Assembly (NCBI GenBank): GCA_039589035.1
Contig: JBDHIC010000002.1
Location: 1 to 36,540, forward strand
DNA length: 36,540 nt
Origin: Gemmatimonadota bacterium
Lineage (GTDB): Bacteria; Gemmatimonadota; Gemmatimonadetes; JACCXV01; JAHWKZ01
Direction: 5' to 3'
The position numbers were made by a program, and so were the translations under genes. The notes under the pieces were generated by a model that did not search any database, had not been told where the DNA came from, and was given only the letters and a program-made list of their open reading frames with translations. This document shows positions 14,110-24,964 of this stretch, piece after piece; positions within the stretch are counted from its first letter, which is position 1; the number at the start of each line of letters is the position of its first letter.

Positions 14110-16266
14110 CTAGGCTGAGCGCTCGAACTGGTCGGTGGCCTCCGACTGAGGCGGGGGCGCCTCCTTGCGATCGCTCCACATGGCCTCAAAACGGTGGCGC
14201 GGCATCGGTTGCGCAATCAGGTAGCCCTGAACTACGTCGCACCCTTCGGCGCACAAGTAGTCGTACTGCTCCTGGGTCTCGACACCTTCGGCGACGACCT
14301 CCAACCGTAGCTCGTGTGCCATCGCGATGATCGCCGACACAATGCTGGCCTCGGTCGAGTCCTGGATCAGGTCGCGCACGAACGATCGGTCGATCTTGAG
14401 GCGGTCGAGTGGAAACCGTTTCAGATAGCTCAGCGAAGAGTAGCCGGTACCGAAGTCGTCAATCGCAATACGGACGCCCAGATCCTTCAGGTTTGTCAGT
14501 TGGGTTCGGCTCGTTGCCGTGTCCTCCATGAGAACGCTCTCGGTGAGTTCGAGCTCGAGATACGAAGGATCGAGCCCCACCCCCATGATGGCGTTGGCGA
14601 CCTTGATTACGAGATCTGAATCGCGAAATTGTCGCGCTGACAGGTTTACCGAAAGGCGCAGGGGACCGATCTCAGCCTCGACCCATGACGCCGCCTGCGC
14701 GCAGGCTTCTTCGAGCGTCCATTCGCCCATGGGCAGAATCAGGCCCGTCTCCTCGGCCACCGGGATGAACCTTCCCGGGAGCACCATCCCGTGCTCTGGG
14801 TGGTTCCACCGCATGAGGGCTTCGACGCCGGTAATCTGGTGGTTGTTGAGCGATACGAGTGGCTGATAGAAGAGCCCGAGCTCACTGCGCTCGATCGCGT
14901 GCCGAAGATCGTTCTCGATCTCAAACCGTTTTTGATCCCGATCGTCGAGATCCTCCGTGTAGAACTGGTAGTTGTTTCGACCCGCGTCCTTGGCACGGTA
15001 CAAGGCGTTGTCCGCCTTCATGAGCAAGGCCTCAGGGTCCGATTCCTCCGAGAAGAGAATGAGCCCGATGCTGAACGACACGAAGATCTCGGCTTCATTG
15101 ATGTTGAACGGGAATGAGACGTTTTTCAGTATCCGTTCTGCCACCATAGACGCCTCTTTCTCGTTCTGAATGTCCGAGACTAGGATGATGAACTCATCCC
15201 CACCGATGCGCGCCACCATGTCTTCACTTCTCGAGATTCCTCGATCCTCGGTCGGATTATGGCGCACGCACTTTGTCAATCGGGAGGCCACCAAGCGCAG
15301 CAGTTCATCACCAGCCGAGTGGCCAAGGGTGTCGTTGACGCGCTTGAATCGATCGAGATCCAAGTACAGAATCGCTCCGGCTCCCAACGAATCCCTAGGC
15401 TTTAGAGCGGCTTCCAAGGCTGCTTTAAACGAACGCCGGTTTGGAAGGCCGGTCAGCAGGTCGTTATACGCCAGATGCTCCAACTTTTGCTCCAGCCGCC
15501 TTCGTTCGCTGACGTCCTGGATTGTGCCCACGATGCCGGTTGGCTTGCCTTCCTTGTCGAGTTGAACCTCGGCTTGTTCGTGAATGAAGGAAACGTTGGC
15601 GTCCGGCCAAAGAAGTCGATAATGGATCTCGTACGGATCGCCTACTGTCAGTGCTCGATCCCGAGCATCGCTAATCAACTGCAGATCTTCAGGATGGATC
15701 GATTTCGAAAAAGTCTCCAGCGTCAGCGGTTCTTCCTCGGCGAGACGGAATACTTCTCGCGTTTCATCCGATATGTGAGTCACGGTTCCAGCGAGATCGA
15801 TCTCCCAGCTCCCAAGCCTGGAGATGCGCTGCGCGTCCGCGAGACGGGCTTGGCTACGAACGAGGTTTCGCGTGTTCTCGCTCGCCCGCTGGATATACTG
15901 GAGGCGTTGATTGAGTATTTGCCAATTCACGGGCTTGGTGATGAAGTCTGTTGCGCCGGCCTGGTAGGCGCGCTGGATCGAATTGGTGTCCTCCAGCCCC
16001 GTCAGCATGACGATCGGTATGTTCTTGGACCACTCGTCCTCGCGGAGCTTTGCGCAGATCGTGAACCCATCGACGTGAGGTAAAATAACGTCAAGCAAGA
16101 CGATATCCGGCATGACTCTGCGCACGACGTGAACGACGTGGGCACCGTCGGCTACCTCTTCCACAAGAAAACTGTTCTTTTCCAGCGCGCGACGGAGCAG
16201 GGCGCGCTGCGTCGCATCGTCGTCGACGACTAGGATTAGCGGCGCTTGACGCCCGGTCTCGCTCAT
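14110..16266 (-). CDS. Response regulator with REC-PAS-GGDEF-EAL architecture (c-di-GMP synthesis/turnover)
   Basis: Start at ATG 16266 (MSETGRQAPLILVVDDD) overlaps the kinase stop as ATGA. Phospho-acceptor 'VLLDVILP'. PAS region. Intact 'GGDEF', 'EAL' (GVEALMRW) and 'DDFGTGYSSL' motifs. Confidence 0.9.
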   Translation of the reverse strand: MSETGRQAPLILVVDDDATQRALLRRALEKNSFLVEEVADGAHVVHVVRRVMPDIVLLDVILPHVDGFTICAKLREDEWSKNIPIVMLTGLEDTNSIQRAYQAGATDFITKPVNWQILNQRLQYIQRASENTRNLVRSQARLADAQRISRLGSWEIDLAGTVTHISDETREVFRLAEEEPLTLETFSKSIHPEDLQLISDARDRALTVGDPYEIHYRLLWPDANVSFIHEQAEVQLDKEGKPTGIVGTIQDVSERRRLEQKLEHLAYNDLLTGLPNRRSFKAALEAALKPRDSLGAGAILYLDLDRFKRVNDTLGHSAGDELLRLVASRLTKCVRHNPTEDRGISRSEDMVARIGGDEFIILVSDIQNEKEASMVAERILKNVSFPFNINEAEIFVSFSIGLILFSEESDPEALLMKADNALYRAKDAGRNNYQFYTEDLDDRDQKRFEIENDLRHAIERSELGLFYQPLVSLNNHQITGVEALMRWNHPEHGMVLPGRFIPVAEETGLILPMGEWTLEEACAQAASWVEAEIGPLRLSVNLSARQFRDSDLVIKVANAIMGVGLDPSYLELELTESVLMEDTATSRTQLTNLKDLGVRIAIDDFGTGYSSLSYLKRFPLDRLKIDRSFVRDLIQDSTEASIVSAIIAMAHELRLEVVAEGVETQEQYDYLCAEGCDVVQGYLIAQPMPRHRFEAMWSDRKEAPPPQSEATDQFERSA

Positions 16267-19200
16267 GCCGTGTTCGCCAGTCGAGCCGGGTCTGGCACCG
16301 GCGGCTGCACTTCGGCCCGCAACGCGACGATGACAGCCGCGAACTCGCTCTCGATCTGAACCACAATCGATTCCGCTGGCTCGACGGAACCATCGGCGGC
16401 CAACGCTTGGACCTCCTTGCAAAGCGCGGACAGGTCAGTCGCGCCGAGGCTGGCGCTGCTCGATTTCAGGGTGTGGGCGGCAACCTTGAGCGCGGGAGCA
16501 TCGTTGGCCCGCAGCGCGGCCTTCATCTCCTGGATCAGGTCTCCGGTGTCGCTGATAAACTGTTCGATGATGTTCTGCAAGAACTCCGAGTCGTCATCCG
16601 TCATGAGTGAGCGGATCTCGGCAAGCCTGCTGGCGTCGAGCACGACCGCTTGCGCAGGAGCCTGAACCGGCTGCACTTGGTCGTCTTGCTCGTCAATTTG
16701 CGGATCCAATCCGTTGGGCATCCAGCGCTTGAGAGTCTCTGCCAGATCGTTGAGTCGGAAAGGCTTCCTCAGGTAGTCGTTCATGCCAAAGGGAAGCCCG
16801 CCTTCCGATTGACTGTTTAGCTCATGACCGGTGACGGCAATGATCGGAATGGGCTCTTTGTCGGTGATCGTGATCTCCCTGGCGCGTAACGCCCGCGCCG
16901 CCTCAAAACCGTCCAACCCGGGCATCTGGCAATCCATCAGAATGACGTCGTACTCAGCCTTGCCCACGACATCGAGCAGTTGAGCACCGTCTCTGACGAC
17001 GTCTACTTCGCAACCCAGTTTCTTCACCATGATCGAGATCAAGTCCTGGCTCGTGGTGTTATCCTCCGCCAAGAGGACCCGAAGGCCCAGGGACTCTCGC
17101 TCTTGAGTGTCGCTTGGCTCTGACGTCTTCATTGGCGATTCCTCTCTTGGCTGTTGACCAATCCAACGGACGATCGTTTCTTGCAGTTCATTGCAGCTGT
17201 ACGGCTTGCTCAGGAAGTCATTCATACCAGCCGCGAAGCATGCGTCGCGCGTTCTCTGTAACGCGTATGCGGTCAGGGCGATAATCGGGATGGGCTGGTC
17301 TCCATTCTGTGTTTCGTGTTCGCGGATCCGTCGGGTGGCCTCGAACCCATCCATCTCTGGCATCTCGCAATCCATCAGAATCAGATGAAAGCTCTCTTTG
17401 TCAAATGCTTCAAGCGCCGCGATTCCTGTCCCTACCACTGTCGTTTCGCACCCGAGTTTTCCGAGCATGGCGAGCGCCACCTGCTGATTGACGGCATTGT
17501 CTTCTGCCAGCAGGACGCGCACCCCGGTGGTGTCGTCGTTTCTGAGTGAGCCCTGTGCACCGCCAAGCTCTGATCTGGCCAGCTGCTGCTCCGACGATGG
17601 GGACACGTAGGCCGCCAGTTTCTCGAAGAGTTGGGTTTGGGATACGGGCTTGGTTAGGCAGCACAGAACGCCTTGATCCCGCAGCAACTGTGAGTCACGC
17701 TCGAACCCGAGAGAAGTCAGCAGAACGAGCTGCGTTTTGGCCAAGCTCGGATCAGATCGGATCGCATAGGTGAGCTCCAACCCGTCCATGCCGGGCATCT
17801 TCATGTCGAGGATCGCGAGGTCAAAGGGGTCGTCTGCTGAGACAGCCCTTCTGAGCATAGCGATGGCCTCGAAACCATCCGCTGAGCAGTCGGTCCGCAT
17901 GCCCAATGAACGCAGCTGGTTTTCCAGGATTTCACGGTTCGTCTGGCTGTCGTCGACTACCAGAACATGAAGCCCCCTGAGCTGCAGGTAGTCGGCTCGC
18001 CCGGTCTCGGTCTCGAGTCCGGCGACGTTTGCCAGTTGAATCCTGAACCAGAATGTGGATCCACCGCCTTCCTTGCTGTCGGCGCCGATCTCGCCGCCCA
18101 TTGCCTCAGCAAGCTGTTTGGAGATGGCCAGACCCAAACCTGTGCCCCCGAACCTTCTAGATGTCGAGCTGTCTGCTTGGTCGAAGAGGTTGAAGACGCG
18201 CTCACGCGCCTCAGGAGAGATGCCGACGCCGGTGTCCTTGACTTCAACCTGAAGCGTCGTATGGCTATCATATTGCTGCGGGCACCAGGCGCTTACGACG
18301 ACCTCACCTTCCTGGGTAAACTTGATCGCATTGCTGGTGAGGTTGACGATCACCTGGCGCAAACGACCGGGGTCCCCGACGACCCGCCGGGGCACCTCGC
18401 TCGCGATTTCGCATGCCAACTCGATATCCTTTTTGTAGGCCTCCTCGGCGAACATGCCGACGGCTTCGTCGATCAACATCCACAGGTCGAACTCAACCTC
18501 CTCGAGGACAAGCTTTCCGGCCTCGATCTTCGAAAAGTCCAGGATGCTGTTGATTAACTCGAGCAACGTTTCACCCGACTTGCGGACAGTGGTCGCGAGC
18601 TCGTGCTGAGATTCGCTCAACTCGGTCTGAAGAAGCAGCTCAGTCATTCCGAGGACACCGTTCATCGGGGTCCGGATCTCGTGGCTCATCTTGGCCAGAA
18701 AGTCCGACTTCGCGTTGTTGGCGGCGTCCGCTGATTCTTTTGCCTGTTGGAGCTCAACGTTGGCTTGGGTGCGCTTCTCAACTTCGTTCTCCAGAAAGTC
18801 ACTGTGTTGTGCCAGCTGTATGCTCTGCGCCTGAATGTGGCTCAGCATTTGGTTGAACCCGCTGATCAGCGTACCGATCTCGTCCTTTGACTTTCTCGCC
18901 TCTGCTTGAACGCTGTAGTCCCCATCGATCGAGATCTTCTTCATGACATTCGTCAGCGAGCGGATCGGGTCCGAGATACGTCGCTGAAACATGGCCGACA
19001 GAATGAAGGCCAAAAGCGAAAGGGAGATCAGCACGATGCCGCCAACGTCTCCATAAGACTCGATGCGAGAGCGAAGAACTCCGAGGTCGGATCGGATCCA
19101 AAGGGTACCGACCGTCTGCCCGTCGACGACGATCTTTTTGGTAAGGTCTAACGCGTCTCTCGAGAACCGATGGTGGACAGCTCCGGCGAGTAGCTGTGGG

Positions 19201-19568
19201 TCAGCGTCCAGAATGGCCTGGATCAGATCTTGATCGGCTGAAGGGTCGTGATCGGGGTCGCTCCGGACGTAGCTGGCGAAGACCTCATCGTGGGCCGTTA
19301 CGATAAACGCCGAGATTACATGGGGGTCGTTTCTGAGGTTGGCCAGGTGCTCTTCGGCAGCTCTGTCGTCTTCGCGGATTAGATCTTGCCCGGTACCGCT
19401 GGCGACGATCTCGGCGATCGTAGAGACATCTTCGACGAGATCCTTGCGCTGTCCGACTATATCGGTGATCAGGTAGACCGCGGAGGCCAGCAGCAGCACG
19501 ATTATGCTGGTGGCCACCATGATGGCGGTGAGCTTGAACCGGATCGACACGGTTGGTACGAAGCGCAT
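16263..19568 (-). CDS. Hybrid sensor histidine kinase: TM - periplasmic/CHASE8-like sensor - TM - HAMP - HisKA - HATPase - REC x3 - HPt
   Basis: 1101 aa. H-box 'SHEIRTPMNG'. ATPase 'GGTGLGLAISKQL'. Three receivers ('VLVVDDSQ..ILDMKMP', 'VLLAEDNAVN..LMDCEMP', 'VLLAEDNTTS..LMDCQMP'). C-terminal HPt 'AAHTLKSSSASLG'. Confidence 0.9.
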   Translation of the reverse strand: MRFVPTVSIRFKLTAIMVATSIIVLLLASAVYLITDIVGQRKDLVEDVSTIAEIVASGTGQDLIREDDRAAEEHLANLRNDPHVISAFIVTAHDEVFASYVRSDPDHDPSADQDLIQAILDADPQLLAGAVHHRFSRDALDLTKKIVVDGQTVGTLWIRSDLGVLRSRIESYGDVGGIVLISLSLLAFILSAMFQRRISDPIRSLTNVMKKISIDGDYSVQAEARKSKDEIGTLISGFNQMLSHIQAQSIQLAQHSDFLENEVEKRTQANVELQQAKESADAANNAKSDFLAKMSHEIRTPMNGVLGMTELLLQTELSESQHELATTVRKSGETLLELINSILDFSKIEAGKLVLEEVEFDLWMLIDEAVGMFAEEAYKKDIELACEIASEVPRRVVGDPGRLRQVIVNLTSNAIKFTQEGEVVVSAWCPQQYDSHTTLQVEVKDTGVGISPEARERVFNLFDQADSSTSRRFGGTGLGLAISKQLAEAMGGEIGADSKEGGGSTFWFRIQLANVAGLETETGRADYLQLRGLHVLVVDDSQTNREILENQLRSLGMRTDCSADGFEAIAMLRRAVSADDPFDLAILDMKMPGMDGLELTYAIRSDPSLAKTQLVLLTSLGFERDSQLLRDQGVLCCLTKPVSQTQLFEKLAAYVSPSSEQQLARSELGGAQGSLRNDDTTGVRVLLAEDNAVNQQVALAMLGKLGCETTVVGTGIAALEAFDKESFHLILMDCEMPEMDGFEATRRIREHETQNGDQPIPIIALTAYALQRTRDACFAAGMNDFLSKPYSCNELQETIVRWIGQQPREESPMKTSEPSDTQERESLGLRVLLAEDNTTSQDLISIMVKKLGCEVDVVRDGAQLLDVVGKAEYDVILMDCQMPGLDGFEAARALRAREITITDKEPIPIIAVTGHELNSQSEGGLPFGMNDYLRKPFRLNDLAETLKRWMPNGLDPQIDEQDDQVQPVQAPAQAVVLDASRLAEIRSLMTDDDSEFLQNIIEQFISDTGDLIQEMKAALRANDAPALKVAAHTLKSSSASLGATDLSALCKEVQALAADGSVEPAESIVVQIESEFAAVIVALRAEVQPPVPDPARLANTA

Positions 19569-19650
19569 TCGAACGAGGTTGGTGACCCAACCCTCCGTCG
19601 GAGGAGAGTTAACCGCTAAACCAGGCGGGGGATTTCCGCTCTATCTATGG

Positions 19651-19665
19651 GCAAGCAACGTGCCA
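19651..19665 (-). promoter_or_regulatory. Sigma54 (-24/-12) promoter for the kinase/GGDEF-EAL operon
   Basis: The minus strand reads CTGGCACGTTGCTTGCC, i.e. TGGCAC-N5-TTGC with correct spacing, about 85-95 nt upstream of the kinase ATG (19568). Confidence 0.55.
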
Positions 19666-19710
19666 GTGGTGCGAAGCGTCACAACAGTGGCAACAGCGGT
19701 CATCTATCGA

Positions 19711-19724
19711 GGCAATTCATTGCC
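19711..19724. repeat. 14-bp inverted repeat GGCAAT-TC-ATTGCC (candidate regulator/UAS site), with a further GGCAA half-site at 19689-19693
   Basis: Perfect 6+6 palindrome read directly, lying about 50-60 bp upstream (minus sense) of the sigma54 -24 element. Confidence 0.3.
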
Positions 19725-20084
19725 ACAGGCTGAAATCGGGTACCCGGATGAGGCCTGTCGGCGTCGCGTTGCTACTGGTGGATTTCTTCGGTCTGCGTGG
19801 CTTTTGGGGATTCGCGGCAGGGTCGTTTGGTCGCAGTCCGGTACTATGCCGATTTCGACCACGTGCGGTCGAAACGCTCTATGTGTACGGGATTCTGAAA
19901 AATCGTTGCGCCGTCGGGTCACTAGTCTCGATTTCTGATCTGCAAATGGCCCCTAGAATGGGCCCCCGAAGTCGCGACTCGTTAGGAGGGCGTGACTCGC
20001 CACTAATCCGTGCATTTTGAGATAGCAGAGCTACTGACGGTGTTGCCGTAAATTGTTGAGTACGAATCGTTTTAGCGTTGCTGT

Positions 20085-20098
20085 GGAAAAGGTTTTCC
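20085..20098. repeat. 14-bp inverted repeat GGAAAA-GG-TTTTCC abutting the -35 box of the lipoprotein promoter
   Basis: Perfect 6+6 palindrome ending 12 nt upstream of TTGACT (20110). Candidate operator or activator site. Confidence 0.3.
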
Positions 20099-20109
20099 TA
20101 ACAAATATC

Positions 20110-20138
20110 TTGACTTTTTACGCCCATAGCGGTCTAAT
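20110..20138 (+). promoter_or_regulatory. Sigma70-like promoter (TTGACT - 17 nt - TCTAAT)
   Basis: -35 TTGACT at 20110-20115, 17-nt spacer, -10 TCTAAT at 20133-20138, in an AT-richer stretch. The predicted TSS near 20145 lies just upstream of the riboswitch-like element. Confidence 0.5.
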
Positions 20139-20150
20139 ACTAGCGTAATA

Positions 20151-20236
20151 CCCCATCCGATAAGGGCGATCCGGCCGGGAGGTCGGTCCGCAAAGCTACG
20201 GGTCTCGTCGAGATGGCCGGGCTGCCGAACATGGGG
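20151..20236 (+). promoter_or_regulatory. Candidate c-di-GMP-I (GEMM-I) riboswitch aptamer
   Basis: Closing helix CCCCAU(20151-56)/AUGGGG(20231-36). GGGCGAUCC junction. GNRA-capped hairpin CCGGCC-GGGA-GGUCGG (20171-86). Invariant-looking CGCAAAGC (20189-96). Second hairpin GGUCU-CGUCG-AGAU. 3' box GCCGGGCUGCCGA (20216-28). Same order as in Vc2-type GEMM-I RNAs as I recall them. Not verified with a covariance model. Confidence 0.6.
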
Positions 20237-20278
20237 TTGTCGGCCGACGACCTCAACACTTCACTGAAGAGGCAAATC

Positions 20279-21349
20279 ATGAATCGCACTGCAGGTTGGG
20301 TCCTAGGACTCGCCGTCCTGGGGTGGCTTACCGTGGGCTGTTCGGATAACTCGGGTCCGGTTGGAATATCATCGTTCGAGTCGAACGGGATCACGCTGGC
20401 TGCGGTATCTGAAGTGATCGATTTTGAGGGTGTACCGGAGGGAACTCAAAACCCGGTTGTATTTGGCGACGGTGGGAGCGGGCCGATCGCGACATCGGCG
20501 GGACCGGCCACGGCCTCGTGTCCCGACGCCGACACGGCGATCATCTACGACACGTCGGCAGGACCGGGTGCTGACCCCGATCTCGATGCTCAACCGGCGC
20601 AAGCGAATGTCCTCATCGTCGAGGAGGACTTGGCAGACACCGACGGTGATGGTGACCCCGACGATTGCTTCGACGGGGGGAACCTGACGATCGACTTCTC
20701 TGGCGTGGATGCCGCAGGGGTGACGGCCGAGTCGGTGGTGGTGCTGGACATCGAACAGGCCACTGGAGCCAACACGATCGACCTGTTGGGTCCAGGTGAC
20801 GCATTTATTACCTCGATTGACATCCCCTTCACTGGTGATGGAGGGATCACTGGACCAATCAACCTCGGTCCGACCGCTGGCGTCGTGAAGATGGTCTTCC
20901 ACTTCGTGACCTCGGGCGCAGTTGATGACCTCGTCTTCACACCACCCGATCGCGGGAATCAAGGGTGCACGCCAGGGAAGTGGAAGAACTGGACCGGCCT
21001 CAAGAGCCAGGCAAACATCTGGCCACCGACTGGTTACTCGCAGGGTCAATCGGTTGGTTCCGTGTTTACGGGTGTTCACGCGACTCTCGCCGGGACTACG
21101 CTCCTCGACGCGTTGGATGGTGGCGGTGGCCCTGGAATCATAGGCAAGCAGAAGATCCTCTTGCGGGCGGCTGTTGCGGCTCTCCTCAACGCGTCACACC
21201 CGGGAGTTGCCTATCCGCTCACCGAGGCAGAGGTCATCGCCATGGTCAATGCGGCACTGGCGGCGGGCACAGAAGGCGCATTGACGGACCTGGCGACCGA
21301 GCTTGACGACTACAACAACCTTGGTTGCCCGAGTGGTGATTTGACCTAG
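20279..21349 (+). CDS. Acidic lipoprotein of unknown function (riboswitch-controlled candidate)
   Basis: ATG 20279 six nt after GAAGAGG. Signal peptide and lipobox 'LGWLTVGC'. Asp/Gly-rich 'EEDLADTDGDGDPDDCFDGG'. C-terminal Cys-containing domain 'GCTPGKWKNWTG...LGCPSGD'. No family recognised. Confidence 0.75.
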   Translation: MNRTAGWVLGLAVLGWLTVGCSDNSGPVGISSFESNGITLAAVSEVIDFEGVPEGTQNPVVFGDGGSGPIATSAGPATASCPDADTAIIYDTSAGPGADPDLDAQPAQANVLIVEEDLADTDGDGDPDDCFDGGNLTIDFSGVDAAGVTAESVVVLDIEQATGANTIDLLGPGDAFITSIDIPFTGDGGITGPINLGPTAGVVKMVFHFVTSGAVDDLVFTPPDRGNQGCTPGKWKNWTGLKSQANIWPPTGYSQGQSVGSVFTGVHATLAGTTLLDALDGGGGPGIIGKQKILLRAAVAALLNASHPGVAYPLTEAEVIAMVNAALAAGTEGALTDLATELDDYNNLGCPSGDLT

Positions 21350-21399: not shown

Positions 21400-21440
21400 G
21401 AAGGGGCCCTCGATTCGAGGGCCCCTTCTTTTTGTGTTTG
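21400..21440 (+). terminator. Rho-independent terminator of the lipoprotein gene
   Basis: Perfect 13-bp stem GAAGGGGCCCTCG / CGAGGGCCCCTTC with a 3-nt loop, followed by TTTTTGTGTTTG. Confidence 0.85.
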
Positions 21441-21443
21441 ACG

Positions 21444-24005
21444 CTAACTGGGAAGCTTGGCTTGCAGTCGCTTGAGGGCGGCCAGCAGATCGGGCGAGTC
21501 TTGCAGCACACCGCGAAAGGGATCGCTCTTCAGTTGACCTACACGTCGCGGCACCGAGCGGATGGTGTAGCGGTGGATGTCCAACCCCAACTTGATCTCG
21601 CTCCACTTGAGCGGCGTCGACACCGGGGCGCCGGCGATCGGCCGGATGCTGAATGGTGCTACAAGTAACTGCCCGCGGCGATTCTGTAAGTAATCCAGGT
21701 ACACCTTGCCCTCGCGATCGGCGATCGTGCGGGTGAGGGTGGCGATGTCGGAGTGGCGGGCGACGACGACCTGCGACAAGAGCTCGCCCAAGGCTCGCGA
21801 CATCGCATAGTCAAAGCGACCATCGAGCGGGACCAGCACGTGGAGCCCGGTCGACCCGCTCGTCTTCACGTAGGCTGGTAGCTCGATCTCTTTGCATAAA
21901 CTGTGGATAGCCCGTGCGACTTCGACCACGTTCTCAAATGGAGCATCCTTGGGATCGAGGTCCAGGATGCACCAGTCGGGGTAGTCGAGCGACTCAACCC
22001 GGCTGGCCCAGATGTGAAGCGGGATCGTGGCCATGTTGGCCAGATACAGCAGAGTCGGGAGATCGTCGCACACCACGTAAGCGAGCTCGCGCTCGGAGTG
22101 CTCGCTCCAGATCGGGACGGTGCGGATCCAGTCGGGGACGAAACCTGGGGTGTTCTTCTGGTAGAACGAGTCGCCTTCGATTCCGTCCGGAAAACGGGTC
22201 AGGACCAGCGGTCGATCGCGAAGGTAGGGGAGTAATGCCGGGGCGATCTTCCGGTAGTACTCGAACAAGTCGCGCTTGGTGTACCCATCGTCCGGCCAGA
22301 AGACCTTGTCGGGGTTCGATAAGCGCACTTCACCGGTCGCCGGTTGTTCGATTTCACTGTTCGTAGCATCGGACCTCCGGACAGGCGCGGCCGACGCTGC
22401 CGCCTGATCCTCATCGGACCACGGCAGCTCGCATTCGGTGGGCTGCTTGTCATCGCGCAGGCGTAGAAACGCCGGTTGCCGGAGCAGCCCCTCCTCGGTC
22501 GCCTCGAGATACCGGACCTCGCAAATCAGATCGGGCTCGACCCAACGGTGGGCGGCTCCGGGTGGTGTCGGTCCGGTGAAGGGTGGGGTCTCGCGGTGGA
22601 GTTCATCCAGTGTCTCACGCAGGGAACGGAGCAAAACGTTGCTGAACCCGGTCCCGACTCGGCCTGCGTAACGCAACTCGTCATCTCGGTAGCCGCCGAG
22701 GTGCAACGCACCGAATCCGGTCCGTGACCCCTTGGGCAATGTGTAGCCGACGATCACGAAATCAGCGGTACGATCGGCGCGGACCTTGATCCAGTCACCC
22801 GATCGAGCACCACGATAGCGGCTGTCGGCCTTTTTGCCGACGACACCTTCGAGCCCCAGGCCGACGATCTGATGATAGAGATCCTCGCCGGTTTCGTCGA
22901 AATGCTCGACGTAGCGGAGCGGTCCAGTGGGGGGCAGAACCGTCTGCAGCAGTTGCTTGCGCTCGGTCAGCGGAAGTGACCGCAGGTCGTGACCCAACGC
23001 GGCCAGAATATCGAATACGTAGAACGTCGTCGGCTGATGTCGCGAGGTGCGCTGGATGTCGATCGCTCGCGTCAGCCGGGCGCGCTTCTGAAGCTGCTGA
23101 AAGCTGGGCAGCCCGGCGTCGTCGTGGGCGACGACCTCGCCGTCCAGGATTAGCTCGTCGTACGGCAACGCGGCGATCGCCGCAGCCAGCTCGGGGAAGC
23201 TCGGCGTCGCGTCGTTGCCATTTCGGGTTATCAGCTCGACGCCAGCGGCCGATCTGCCGCCCAGCATCCGATAGCCGTCGAGCTTGAGCTCGAAGACCCA
23301 CCCCGGTTTGGAGAACGGCTCTCGACGCGAGCGGGCCAGCATCATCTTGACCGTCGGTGCGCGCAGTGCGCGTCGCGGCGCTCCTAGTTCCTCCAAGCGT
23401 CGTTTCAGGTCTGCACCGGGATCGTACTCCTCGCCCAGCTGTTCGACCGTGAGCCCCGAGTGGACCGATTCTGGCGGCAGATCGTCCACACCTCCGGGGT
23501 CGTCTGGAGCGCGTTGGGCGTACTTCTTTTCACGGATCATCAACCATTCGTTTTCGCTCTTCTTGAGCTTCACCAGCGTCCACACTCCGCGCAGCTTGTA
23601 ACCGCGGAGCTCGAACAGGAGCTTGCCGGCTTCCAGTCCCTCGATCGGATCGTCCAGTGGGCGCCAAATGCCAAGGTCCCAAATGATCATTGCGCCGGCG
23701 CCGTAGCTGCCAGCCGGAATGACGTCCTCGAAGTCGATGTACTCGATGGGGTGATCTTCGACGTGCACGGCGAGGCGCTTGTCGGCTGGGTCCAACGATG
23801 GGCCCTTGGGGACAGCCCACGATTTGAGAACGCCGCCCATCTCGAGTCGCAGGTCGTAGTGCAGTCTGCGGGCCGCGTGTTTGTGAACGACAAACCCGCC
23901 ACCAGCTAACTGGCTGTCCGGCCGGGAGGCTAGCCCCGCGGGTTCCGGCGTCTTCGCGGCCGTTCGTTTGGCCTTGTACTCGCCTAGAGGATCGCGTTTT
24001 GGCAC
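21444..24005 (-). CDS. ligD: Multidomain NHEJ DNA ligase D (3'-phosphoesterase - ATP-dependent ligase - primase/polymerase)
   Basis: 853 aa. N-terminal PE domain 'FVVHKHAARRLHYDLRLE...SWAVPKGPS'. Ligase motif I 'ELKLDGYR'. C-terminal LigD polymerase domain 'LSNPDKVFWP...YYRKIAP...LTRFPDGI...DLDP'. GTG start. Confidence 0.9.
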   Translation of the reverse strand: MPKRDPLGEYKAKRTAAKTPEPAGLASRPDSQLAGGGFVVHKHAARRLHYDLRLEMGGVLKSWAVPKGPSLDPADKRLAVHVEDHPIEYIDFEDVIPAGSYGAGAMIIWDLGIWRPLDDPIEGLEAGKLLFELRGYKLRGVWTLVKLKKSENEWLMIREKKYAQRAPDDPGGVDDLPPESVHSGLTVEQLGEEYDPGADLKRRLEELGAPRRALRAPTVKMMLARSRREPFSKPGWVFELKLDGYRMLGGRSAAGVELITRNGNDATPSFPELAAAIAALPYDELILDGEVVAHDDAGLPSFQQLQKRARLTRAIDIQRTSRHQPTTFYVFDILAALGHDLRSLPLTERKQLLQTVLPPTGPLRYVEHFDETGEDLYHQIVGLGLEGVVGKKADSRYRGARSGDWIKVRADRTADFVIVGYTLPKGSRTGFGALHLGGYRDDELRYAGRVGTGFSNVLLRSLRETLDELHRETPPFTGPTPPGAAHRWVEPDLICEVRYLEATEEGLLRQPAFLRLRDDKQPTECELPWSDEDQAAASAAPVRRSDATNSEIEQPATGEVRLSNPDKVFWPDDGYTKRDLFEYYRKIAPALLPYLRDRPLVLTRFPDGIEGDSFYQKNTPGFVPDWIRTVPIWSEHSERELAYVVCDDLPTLLYLANMATIPLHIWASRVESLDYPDWCILDLDPKDAPFENVVEVARAIHSLCKEIELPAYVKTSGSTGLHVLVPLDGRFDYAMSRALGELLSQVVVARHSDIATLTRTIADREGKVYLDYLQNRRGQLLVAPFSIRPIAGAPVSTPLKWSEIKLGLDIHRYTIRSVPRRVGQLKSDPFRGVLQDSPDLLAALKRLQAKLPS

Positions 24006-24106
24006 AGCCCTAGCTTATATTCTTGCGTTCCATCCTTCACGAGTCACAGCTCCGGGTGCGTGTCGACCACCCGAGCTGGCGGACGATCAACCAGGAGGAA
24101 TCGCAT

Positions 24107-24964
24107 ATGGCGGCGCGCCCCATGGGATCGGCGACTATTTCGTTCGGGCTGGTTTCGGTGCCGGTCAAGCTCTACTCGACCTCGGAGAGTTCTCGCCGCA
24201 TTGCGTTCAACTGGATCCACGCTGAGTGCAATTCGCGCGTCCAGCAGCGATTCTGGTGTCCGGTGGACGAACAGATCGTTGAGCGGGATGAGCTCATGAA
24301 GGGCTATGAGTTTGCCAAGGATCAGTACGTGCTCTTCTCGCCCGAAGAGCTCAAGGTGCTCGACGCGCAGGCGACCAACAGCATCGATATCGCGGAGTTC
24401 GTTCCGCTCGAGAAGGTCGAACGGCTATACCTTGATCGAGCGTACTATCTCGGTCCCGAAGGCGGGGGCGAGCGGGCGTACCGGCTGTTGAGCGCGACGC
24501 TTCGCGAGACCGGCCGCGCGGCCCTCGGGAGCTACGCCGCGCGGGGCAAGCAGTATCTCGTCCTGGTGCGACCGATCGAAGACGGACTCGTGATGGAGCA
24601 GCTTCGATACGCGGACGAGATCCGCCCCTTCTCCGAGGTCCCGATCGGTGACGGCGAGGTAAAGAAGGAAGAGATGAAGCTCGCCGTTCAGCTGGTCGAG
24701 CAGGGATCGAATGACGAATACGATCCCAAGCAGTACACGGACGAAGTGCACGGACGGGTCATGGCGCTGATCGAGCAGAAGATCGAGGGTGAGGAGATCA
24801 CCGCCGCCCCGGAGCCCAAGGCGGATACGAAGATCATCGACCTCATGGATGCTTTGAAGGCCAGCCTCTCGGAGCCCGAGAAGCCGCAAAAGAAGGCCCG
24901 CAAGTCGGCCAAGCGAACGGCGAGTCGGAAAAAGACGAAAGCACGCAAGTCGAGTGGAGGCTGA
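24107..24964 (+). CDS. ku: Ku DNA end-binding protein with basic C-terminal tail
   Basis: AGGAGGAA RBS 6 nt before ATG 24107. 'ISFGLVSVPVKLYS...' Ku core. Lys/Arg-rich tail 'KPQKKARKSAKRTASRKKTKARK'. Divergent from ligD. Confidence 0.9.
   Translation: MAARPMGSATISFGLVSVPVKLYSTSESSRRIAFNWIHAECNSRVQQRFWCPVDEQIVERDELMKGYEFAKDQYVLFSPEELKVLDAQATNSIDIAEFVPLEKVERLYLDRAYYLGPEGGGERAYRLLSATLRETGRAALGSYAARGKQYLVLVRPIEDGLVMEQLRYADEIRPFSEVPIGDGEVKKEEMKLAVQLVEQGSNDEYDPKQYTDEVHGRVMALIEQKIEGEEITAAPEPKADTKIIDLMDALKASLSEPEKPQKKARKSAKRTASRKKTKARKSSGG

Follow-up and report, generated by a model that had tools for sequence, protein, structure and literature searches.

Riboswitches of the first cyclic di-guanosine monophosphate class (c-di-GMP-I, or GEMM-I) have 2 hairpins joined by a linker that is virtually always AAA, with a GNRA-capped first hairpin as a class criterion, and almost 50% of GEMM RNAs, usually those with GAAA loops, carry a likely tetraloop receptor (PMC1950547). 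Nucleotides G20, A47, and C92, in the numbering of the Vibrio cholerae riboswitch Vc2, are the ligand-contact nucleotides (PMC4744006, PMC5888326), and an interhelical Watson-Crick pair, C44:G83, is universally conserved in the class (PMC4744006). The GEMM regulon has been described as one of "environment, membranes, motility" genes, and riboswitches for c-AMP-GMP are rare specificity variants of c-di-GMP-I (PMC7266159). Here, we analyzed a stretch of 36,540 nucleotides (the window) from a Gemmatimonadota bacterium (GenBank assembly GCA_039589035.1, contig JBDHIC010000002.1, positions 1 to 36,540 of the forward strand), in which the leader of an uncharacterized lipoprotein gene had been proposed to hold a c-di-GMP-I riboswitch. 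Judged from its sequence, the segment at 20151-20236 is very probably a genuine c-di-GMP-I aptamer (GEMM-I, Rfam family RF01051).

The whole window was scanned against 4227 Rfam families at their gathering thresholds, and RF01051 was the sole family to reach its gathering score. The match, which delimits the aptamer core (20155-20229, plus strand), scored 52.1 bits (gathering score, 35; E = 1.6e-7) and spanned the full model (positions 1-87 of 87). This is far above chance level, and it bears out the GEMM-I call of the original prediction, which had set a cmsearch with this family beforehand as its test. The comparison with the c-di-GMP-II model RF01786, also proposed there, was run as part of a permissive scan of 19900-20400 (E <= 10) and returned zero matches, and a c-di-GMP-II riboswitch was rejected on this ground. 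In the same scan, the c-di-GMP-I-GGC variant (RF03167), whose model includes the closing helix P1, scored 56.1 bits on the window aptamer, which falls short of its gathering score (59). The GGC variant was rejected on this score and on the reading CGCAAAG in the window against the variant consensus CGCGAAG, that is, A and not G at the A47 equivalent; because the window and RF01051 share CGCAAAG, we class the element as canonical. To go by the consensus lines, the "GGC" of the variant name would refer to positions 20, 47, and 92. By homology, the ligand of the window aptamer would be c-di-GMP.

Besides the window, we recovered 11 distinct orthologous leaders (L001-L004, L007, L008, L015-L017, L019, and L021), some of them on several contigs. 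The lipoprotein orthologues have identities of 47-88%, with those of 77-88% (P0006 and L001-L003) coming from Gemmatimonadota metagenome-assembled genomes. In all 11 leaders, an aptamer of the same clan lies equally far from the start codon. RF01051 scored 39-52 bits in L001-L004, L008, and L015, and the clan filter reported RF03167 in place of the overlapping RF01051 in L007 (61.6 bits) and in L016, L017, L019, and L021 (49-52 bits). The aptamer was not found in the distant homologues L010, L012, and L013, which have 36-44% identity and do not adjoin LigD.

The RF01051 model alignment of the window was mapped onto Vc2 numbering, with residue roles taken from PMC4744006 and PMC5888326. P1 joins CCCCAU (20151-20156) to AUGGGG (20231-20236), and, by pairing and fold prediction, the latter strand is also the 5' end of a competing hairpin; P1 is invariable, with 98.5% of its cells paired in the 11 leaders. 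The first hairpin, P2 (20166-20191; 8 pairs), is made up of a GC/GC clamp, a GAU bulge, the inner hairpin CCGGCC-GGGA-GGUCGG (20171-20186, preceded by the junction GGGCGAU), and C20189. Its loop, GGGA (20177-20180), is of the GNRA type, as are the GGGA, GCGA, or GGAA loops found across orthologues. The conserved box CGCAAAGC (20189-20196) leads through the invariant AAA linker (20192-20194) into the second hairpin, P3 (20194-20223; 12 pairs, all paired), which is short and has no tetraloop-receptor bulge, the receptor positions being deleted in the model alignment. A GG bulge in P3 lies at 20215-20216, and the 3' box GCUGCCGAA lies at 20221-20229.

Within this framework, G20165 (model position 11) is the equivalent of Vc2 G20, the contact to one ligand guanine; A20192 is that of A47; and C20225, aligned within gCCgaa, is that of C92, the Watson-Crick partner of the second ligand guanine. 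The 3 contacts are of the c-di-GMP type and are invariant in all 11 aligned leaders. In the model alignment, C20189 and G20216 stand at the positions of C44 and G83 and are likewise invariant, and by homology they would form the interhelical pair of the class. On rereading the sequence, we found the promoter boxes, P1, the hairpins, the conserved boxes, the CCUC and CUUC tracts, the Shine-Dalgarno (SD) sequence, and the ATG where the original prediction had placed them. Its string GGGCGAUCC-[CCGGCC had counted a CC twice, the sequence being GGGCGAU-CCGGCC; its transcription held no other error.

Pairing statistics were obtained from an alignment of the 11 leaders with 26 aptamer pairs and a mean column identity of 86%. 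The aptamer pair cells are paired in 99.3% of cases, compared with 26-47% when the 3' partners were slid by 1-3 columns. Several aptamer pairs alternate between G-C and G-U among leaders, but this check, which had been suggested together with the prediction, yielded only 2 compensatory pairs: C20196-G20221 in P3 is replaced by U-A in 5 of the 11 leaders and C20175-G20182 in P2 by U-A in 1 leader. Because the leaders are close, covariation lends the aptamer modest support and is not proof.

Several observations weigh against the aptamer assignment: P1 is invariant and has no compensatory substitutions, covariation is thin among leaders this similar, the P2 bulge reads GAU in place of the consensus AAA, and the tetraloop receptor is missing. 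The last 2 lie within known family variation. The first junction, described in the original prediction as noncanonical (GCGAU vs GCAAA), is indeed so; it varies among orthologues (GCGAU, GCCAG, and GCCAU), and the ligand-contact nucleotides are untouched. The same departures could mark an RNA that keeps the GEMM-I fold and either does not sense c-di-GMP or senses another cyclic dinucleotide, with the GCGAU junction and the missing receptor as the cause. The junction deviates from GGCAAACC, which is strongly conserved, the receptor bulge is missing from P3, the GGC-variant model scores near its threshold (56.1 vs 59), and rare GEMM-I variants do sense c-AMP-GMP (PMC7266159). We nevertheless regard such a change of ligand as very improbable, since the contact positions G, A, and C are all of the c-di-GMP type and invariant across orthologues, and the leader is strongly conserved throughout, which speaks for function. 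Variants for c-AMP-GMP carry A at the G20 position, and a c-AMP-GMP riboswitch (GEMM-Ib) was rejected for the window, where this position is G20165, invariant among orthologues. The receptor is not a defining criterion, and because only about half of GEMM RNAs have one (PMC1950547), a receptor-less P3 falls within the known family range.

Beyond the aptamer core, free (minimum free energy) folding produced a platform hairpin, UGGGGUUGUC-GGCC-GACGACCUCA (20232-20255; 10 bp, -14.7 kcal/mol), in which U20232-C20241 pairs with G20246-A20255 around a GGCC loop. Its 5' arm takes up UGGGG (20232-20236) of the P1 3' strand, and P1 and the full hairpin are therefore mutually exclusive. The original prediction had drawn this hairpin as GGUUGUC-GGCC-GACGACC at 20235-20252 with 2 G residues shared with P1; the pairing at these positions stands, whereas its extent was too short, as the stem can reach 10 bp and would then share 5 P1 nucleotides. 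The hairpin is fully paired in 12 of 12 leaders. With the aptamer enforced, the predicted hairpin shrank to its inner 5 bp, and CCUC (20251-20254), a candidate anti-SD that is the exact complement of GAGG (20269-20272), paired with GAGG directly beside it. The proposal that the CCUC and CUUC (20259-20262) tracts could pair with the SD agrees with the predicted "bound" folds, of which 7 of 12 have CCUC:GAGG.

On this basis, a switch at the level of translation can be drawn. Without c-di-GMP, UGGGG (20232-20236) would pair with CCUCA (20251-20255), lengthening the short hairpin to 10 bp, and the anti-SD CCUC would be buried, leaving the SD largely free and the gene ON. With c-di-GMP present, P1 (CCCCAU/AUGGGG) would be locked and CCUC released beside the remaining 5-bp hairpin; the freed CCUC could then pair with GAGG (20269-20272), which would cover the SD and turn the gene OFF. 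The one sign of covariation between the 2 arms of the hairpin comes from insertions and deletions, in that a 5' arm with 5 G residues goes with CCUUC in 4 of 6 leaders, while a 4-G arm goes with CCUC in 6 of 6 and with the extra U in 0 of 6; by our own arithmetic, the one-sided Fisher p is ~0.03 for leaders that are phylogenetically nonindependent.

A number of results speak against this platform. The hairpin shows zero compensatory substitutions among the leaders, the "bound" fold prefers a CUUC-type pairing with the SD in 5 of 12 leaders, and a weak CUUC:GAGG hairpin is able to cover the SD in both states. The difference in SD accessibility between the states is predicted to be small, CCUC:GAGG having only 4 bp, and the CCUC-GAGG complementarity may be incidental, with each element conserved for another reason. 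The whole-leader fold is also no more stable than that of shuffled sequence (z = -0.31).

The level of control is bound up with what follows the hairpin. The platform stem (20232-20255) is followed by AACACUUCACUG (that is, AACACUUCAC) with no U-tract, and a terminator scan found no terminator-like site in 19600-20600. The genome does use terminators with U-tracts, as directly after the lipoprotein gene, where a canonical intrinsic terminator (21400-21440, plus strand) consists of a perfect GC-rich 13-bp stem followed by UUUUUGUGUUU. An intrinsic-terminator platform was rejected as the main model on these grounds. Since the leader hairpin has no U-tract in a genome that uses U-tract terminators, control is likely to act at translation and not at intrinsic termination, the option that the original prediction had called plausible. 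As for the polarity of the switch, OFF is about as likely as not, or slightly more. The whole model, consisting of a c-di-GMP-I aptamer, a monocistronic lipoprotein gene, and a translational OFF platform of 3 competing elements, is in our judgment moderately likely to be right.

The strength and conservation of the hairpin at 20232-20255 could also be taken in the opposite sense, with the same aptamer working as an ON switch. Here, when c-di-GMP is absent, the GC-rich 10-bp hairpin would halt or destabilize the transcript as a noncanonical terminator, a pause, or a processing site, and a ligand-stabilized P1 would block it and permit expression. Transcriptional riboswitches of the ON type classically have this layout, in which one strand serves both as the 3' strand of P1 and as the 5' arm of a strong hairpin, and terminator stems that compete or overlap with the 3' stem of the aptamer were found in 78 of 322 GEMM RNAs (PMC1950547). 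Given the missing U-tract, the empty terminator scan, and the U-tract terminators that this genome uses elsewhere, we consider an ON switch unlikely. A third use of the same aptamer would involve Rho or RNA decay: ligand binding would unmask CCUCAACACUUCAC (20251-20264), a C-rich tract poor in G, where Rho or an RNase could enter, whether by way of blocked translation or independently of it. The stretch at 20251-20265 is G-free and conserved in most leaders, and only with P1 open does the hairpin bury half of it; yet it is far shorter than typical rut sites, and the linker is substantially different in L008 and L019, which makes this explanation improbable, more so than the ON switch. The translational OFF platform is our working model for the leader.

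The riboswitch is framed by conserved expression signals, the aptamer lying between a promoter-like footprint and a conserved SD with its ATG. A -35-like box, TTGACT (20110-20115), is invariant in 12 leaders and is followed after 17 nt by a -10-like box, TCTAAT (20133-20138), within the conserved block TnTAATAC. Both boxes are kept in every one of the 12 leaders, with a 17-nt spacer that varies freely between them, a phylogenetic footprint that points to promoter function; the transcript is predicted to start at about 20145. A generic sigma-70 scan did not call TTGACT-17-TCTAAT, as it demands A at position 2 of the -10 box, which here is C. Of the SD, GAAGAGG (20266-20272), every leader keeps AAGAGG at 5-6 nt from the ATG, and ATGAATCG at the start is conserved together with it. 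Because the SD and the ATG are conserved there, the true start is ATG 20279, and the start is probably annotated wrongly in entries such as P0005. Two upstream in-frame starts were rejected: ATG 20213 lacks conservation, with orthologues reading ACA or ATA there, and the frame opened by ATG 20231 is, by our count, broken in L004 and L007. These ATGs account for longer open reading frame calls that reach into the aptamer, with 378 aa from ATG 20213 in the window and a 365-aa call in L021 (L021:2001). With the promoter footprint upstream, the gene end at 21349, and the terminator at 21400-21440 between the convergent lipoprotein and LigD genes, the unit is therefore monocistronic, comprising promoter, riboswitch, 1 gene, and terminator.

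The regulated gene (20279-21349, plus strand) encodes a predicted lipoprotein of 356 aa. Its N-terminal lipoprotein-type signal MNRTAGWVLGLAVLGWLTVGC, ending in ...LTVGC, is one that we take to fit a lipobox, and residues G20 and C21 of the protein hardly vary. Pfam, NCBIfam, and PDB sequence searches with the lipoprotein were all without match. An AlphaFold (AF2) model with a mean pLDDT of 80 places a beta-sandwich at residues 45-222, followed by a helical domain near the C-terminus (residues 233-346). A fold search with the beta-sandwich returned weak matches to jelly-roll carbohydrate-binding modules (CBM) and lectins (best E = 3.5e-4, target-normalized TM ~0.5), and our attempt to name the protein failed, with the family and PDB searches empty and only these weak CBM/lectin fold matches. 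A possible surface or envelope role in glycan binding or adhesion would fit the GEMM regulon.

The helical domain is characterized by the motif GCTPGxWKN...GGGGPG...LLRAAVAALLNA...NNLGCP and is common to hundreds of proteins of ~430 aa at 55-60% identity, where the domains before it are of adhesin type (DUF3344, SdrD_B, or DUF7507/DUF11). In the window, it is encoded at 20966-21316 (residues 230-346) with the motifs GCTPG.WKN, GGGGPG, ILLRAAVAALLNA, and NNLGCP; more than 200 proteins share it, and the copies of Pfam and NCBIfam that we used hold no model for it. Conserved cysteines at both ends of the domain (C230 and C350) suggest a disulfide. To widen the set of leaders for covariation, we scanned metagenomes and obtained 80 loci, nearly all of them paralogues sharing only this C-terminal domain, and searched all 80 with our own covariance model and 20 with Rfam. 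An aptamer was identified in 2 of the 80 loci, L095 and L060, on which our covariance model and Rfam agree. Because of these 2 loci out of 80, the link between the helical-domain family and c-di-GMP riboswitches is recurrent but not general. The aptamers, at L095:67-148 and L060:77-153, are of the c-di-GMP-I type and lie ~140 nt upstream of 430-aa DUF3344-type paralogues with the C-terminal domain of the lipoprotein. Both leaders contain the tracts CUGGGG ... CCCCUCC ... GGAGG. In the Rfam alignment, L060 has C and not G at the G20-equivalent position, and its aptamer may be a specificity variant.

Where the contigs reach far enough, gene order is conserved, with a hybrid histidine kinase (minus strand), the riboswitch and lipoprotein gene (plus), LigD (minus), and Ku (plus). 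In the window, LigD (21444-24964) is a full 3-domain protein with phosphoesterase, ligase, and primase-polymerase domains, divergent beside Ku, the 2 forming a nonhomologous end-joining pair. On the other side, a noncoding region of ~540 nt (19569-20109) separates the lipoprotein promoter from a gene for a 1101-aa CHASE8-HAMP hybrid histidine kinase (16263-19568, minus strand); this region had no Rfam match at E <= 10 apart from chance CRISPR-repeat matches at 20022-20063. In L007 (139-230, minus strand) and L015 (1334-1425, minus strand), a second, divergent aptamer of the c-di-GMP-I type is present upstream, with RF03167 scores of 67-68 bits, a GAAA loop, and the CGCAAAG box. That of L015 leads another lipoprotein-like gene of 249 aa (MNYLRPTLVAMVVLGLVAC...), which tblastn did not find in the window. 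A second divergent riboswitch serving the upstream histidine kinase in the window, as in L007 and L015, was rejected, with 19450-20160 empty at E <= 10 but for the chance CRISPR-repeat matches.

The window aptamer had not been described before and is an ordinary member of a well-known class of riboswitches; standard Rfam annotation would find it, and it leaves riboswitch knowledge unchanged. With it, the poorly studied Gemmatimonadota gain a c-di-GMP-I riboswitch of confident assignment, and an uncharacterized lipoprotein family beside LigD and Ku is tied to c-di-GMP signaling, which gives a starting point for the role of the protein. The leader, short and well conserved, would also lend itself to tests of whether a GEMM-I aptamer controls translation. 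More tentatively, and with the odds against it, the locus could be a c-di-GMP-repressed surface-lipoprotein module of Gemmatimonadota, in which a lectin/CBM-like beta-sandwich is combined with the helical domain of a large family, and a receptor-less aptamer with a GCGAU junction and a thiM-like platform serves as the dedicated switch. If so, the helical-domain family, given its occurrence at the unrelated paralogue loci L095 and L060 as well, would be a recurrent and so far unrecognized output of c-di-GMP signaling.

Compared with Vc2, the window has the same two-hairpin aptamer closed by P1, with a GNRA-capped first hairpin and an AAA linker, and the same G20, A47, and C92 contacts and C44:G83 interhelical pair by position. 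It differs from Vc2 and the class in its first-hairpin bulge (GAU, not AAA), its loop (GGGA, not GAAA), and its short, receptor-less P3. The setting in a 5' untranslated region before an envelope or surface gene is that of known c-di-GMP-I riboswitches, while the host phylum, Gemmatimonadota, and the downstream gene, an uncharacterized lipoprotein gene, set it apart from them. The RF03167 GGC variant belongs to the same clan (CL00126) and has the same fold, the window differing by A (CGCAAAG) where the variant has G. The c-AMP-GMP riboswitches (GEMM-Ib) of Geobacter also share the GEMM-I fold, and the window has G where these variants have A at G20. For the platform, the closest likeness is to the thiamine pyrophosphate riboswitch of Escherichia coli thiM, a translational OFF switch built from an anti-anti-SD, an anti-SD, and the SD. 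The logic proposed here would be the same, with the P1 3' strand as the anti-anti-SD and a ligand-locked P1 freeing the anti-SD, whereas the aptamer class and ligand differ and the anti-SD:SD helix of the window is predicted to have only ~4 bp.

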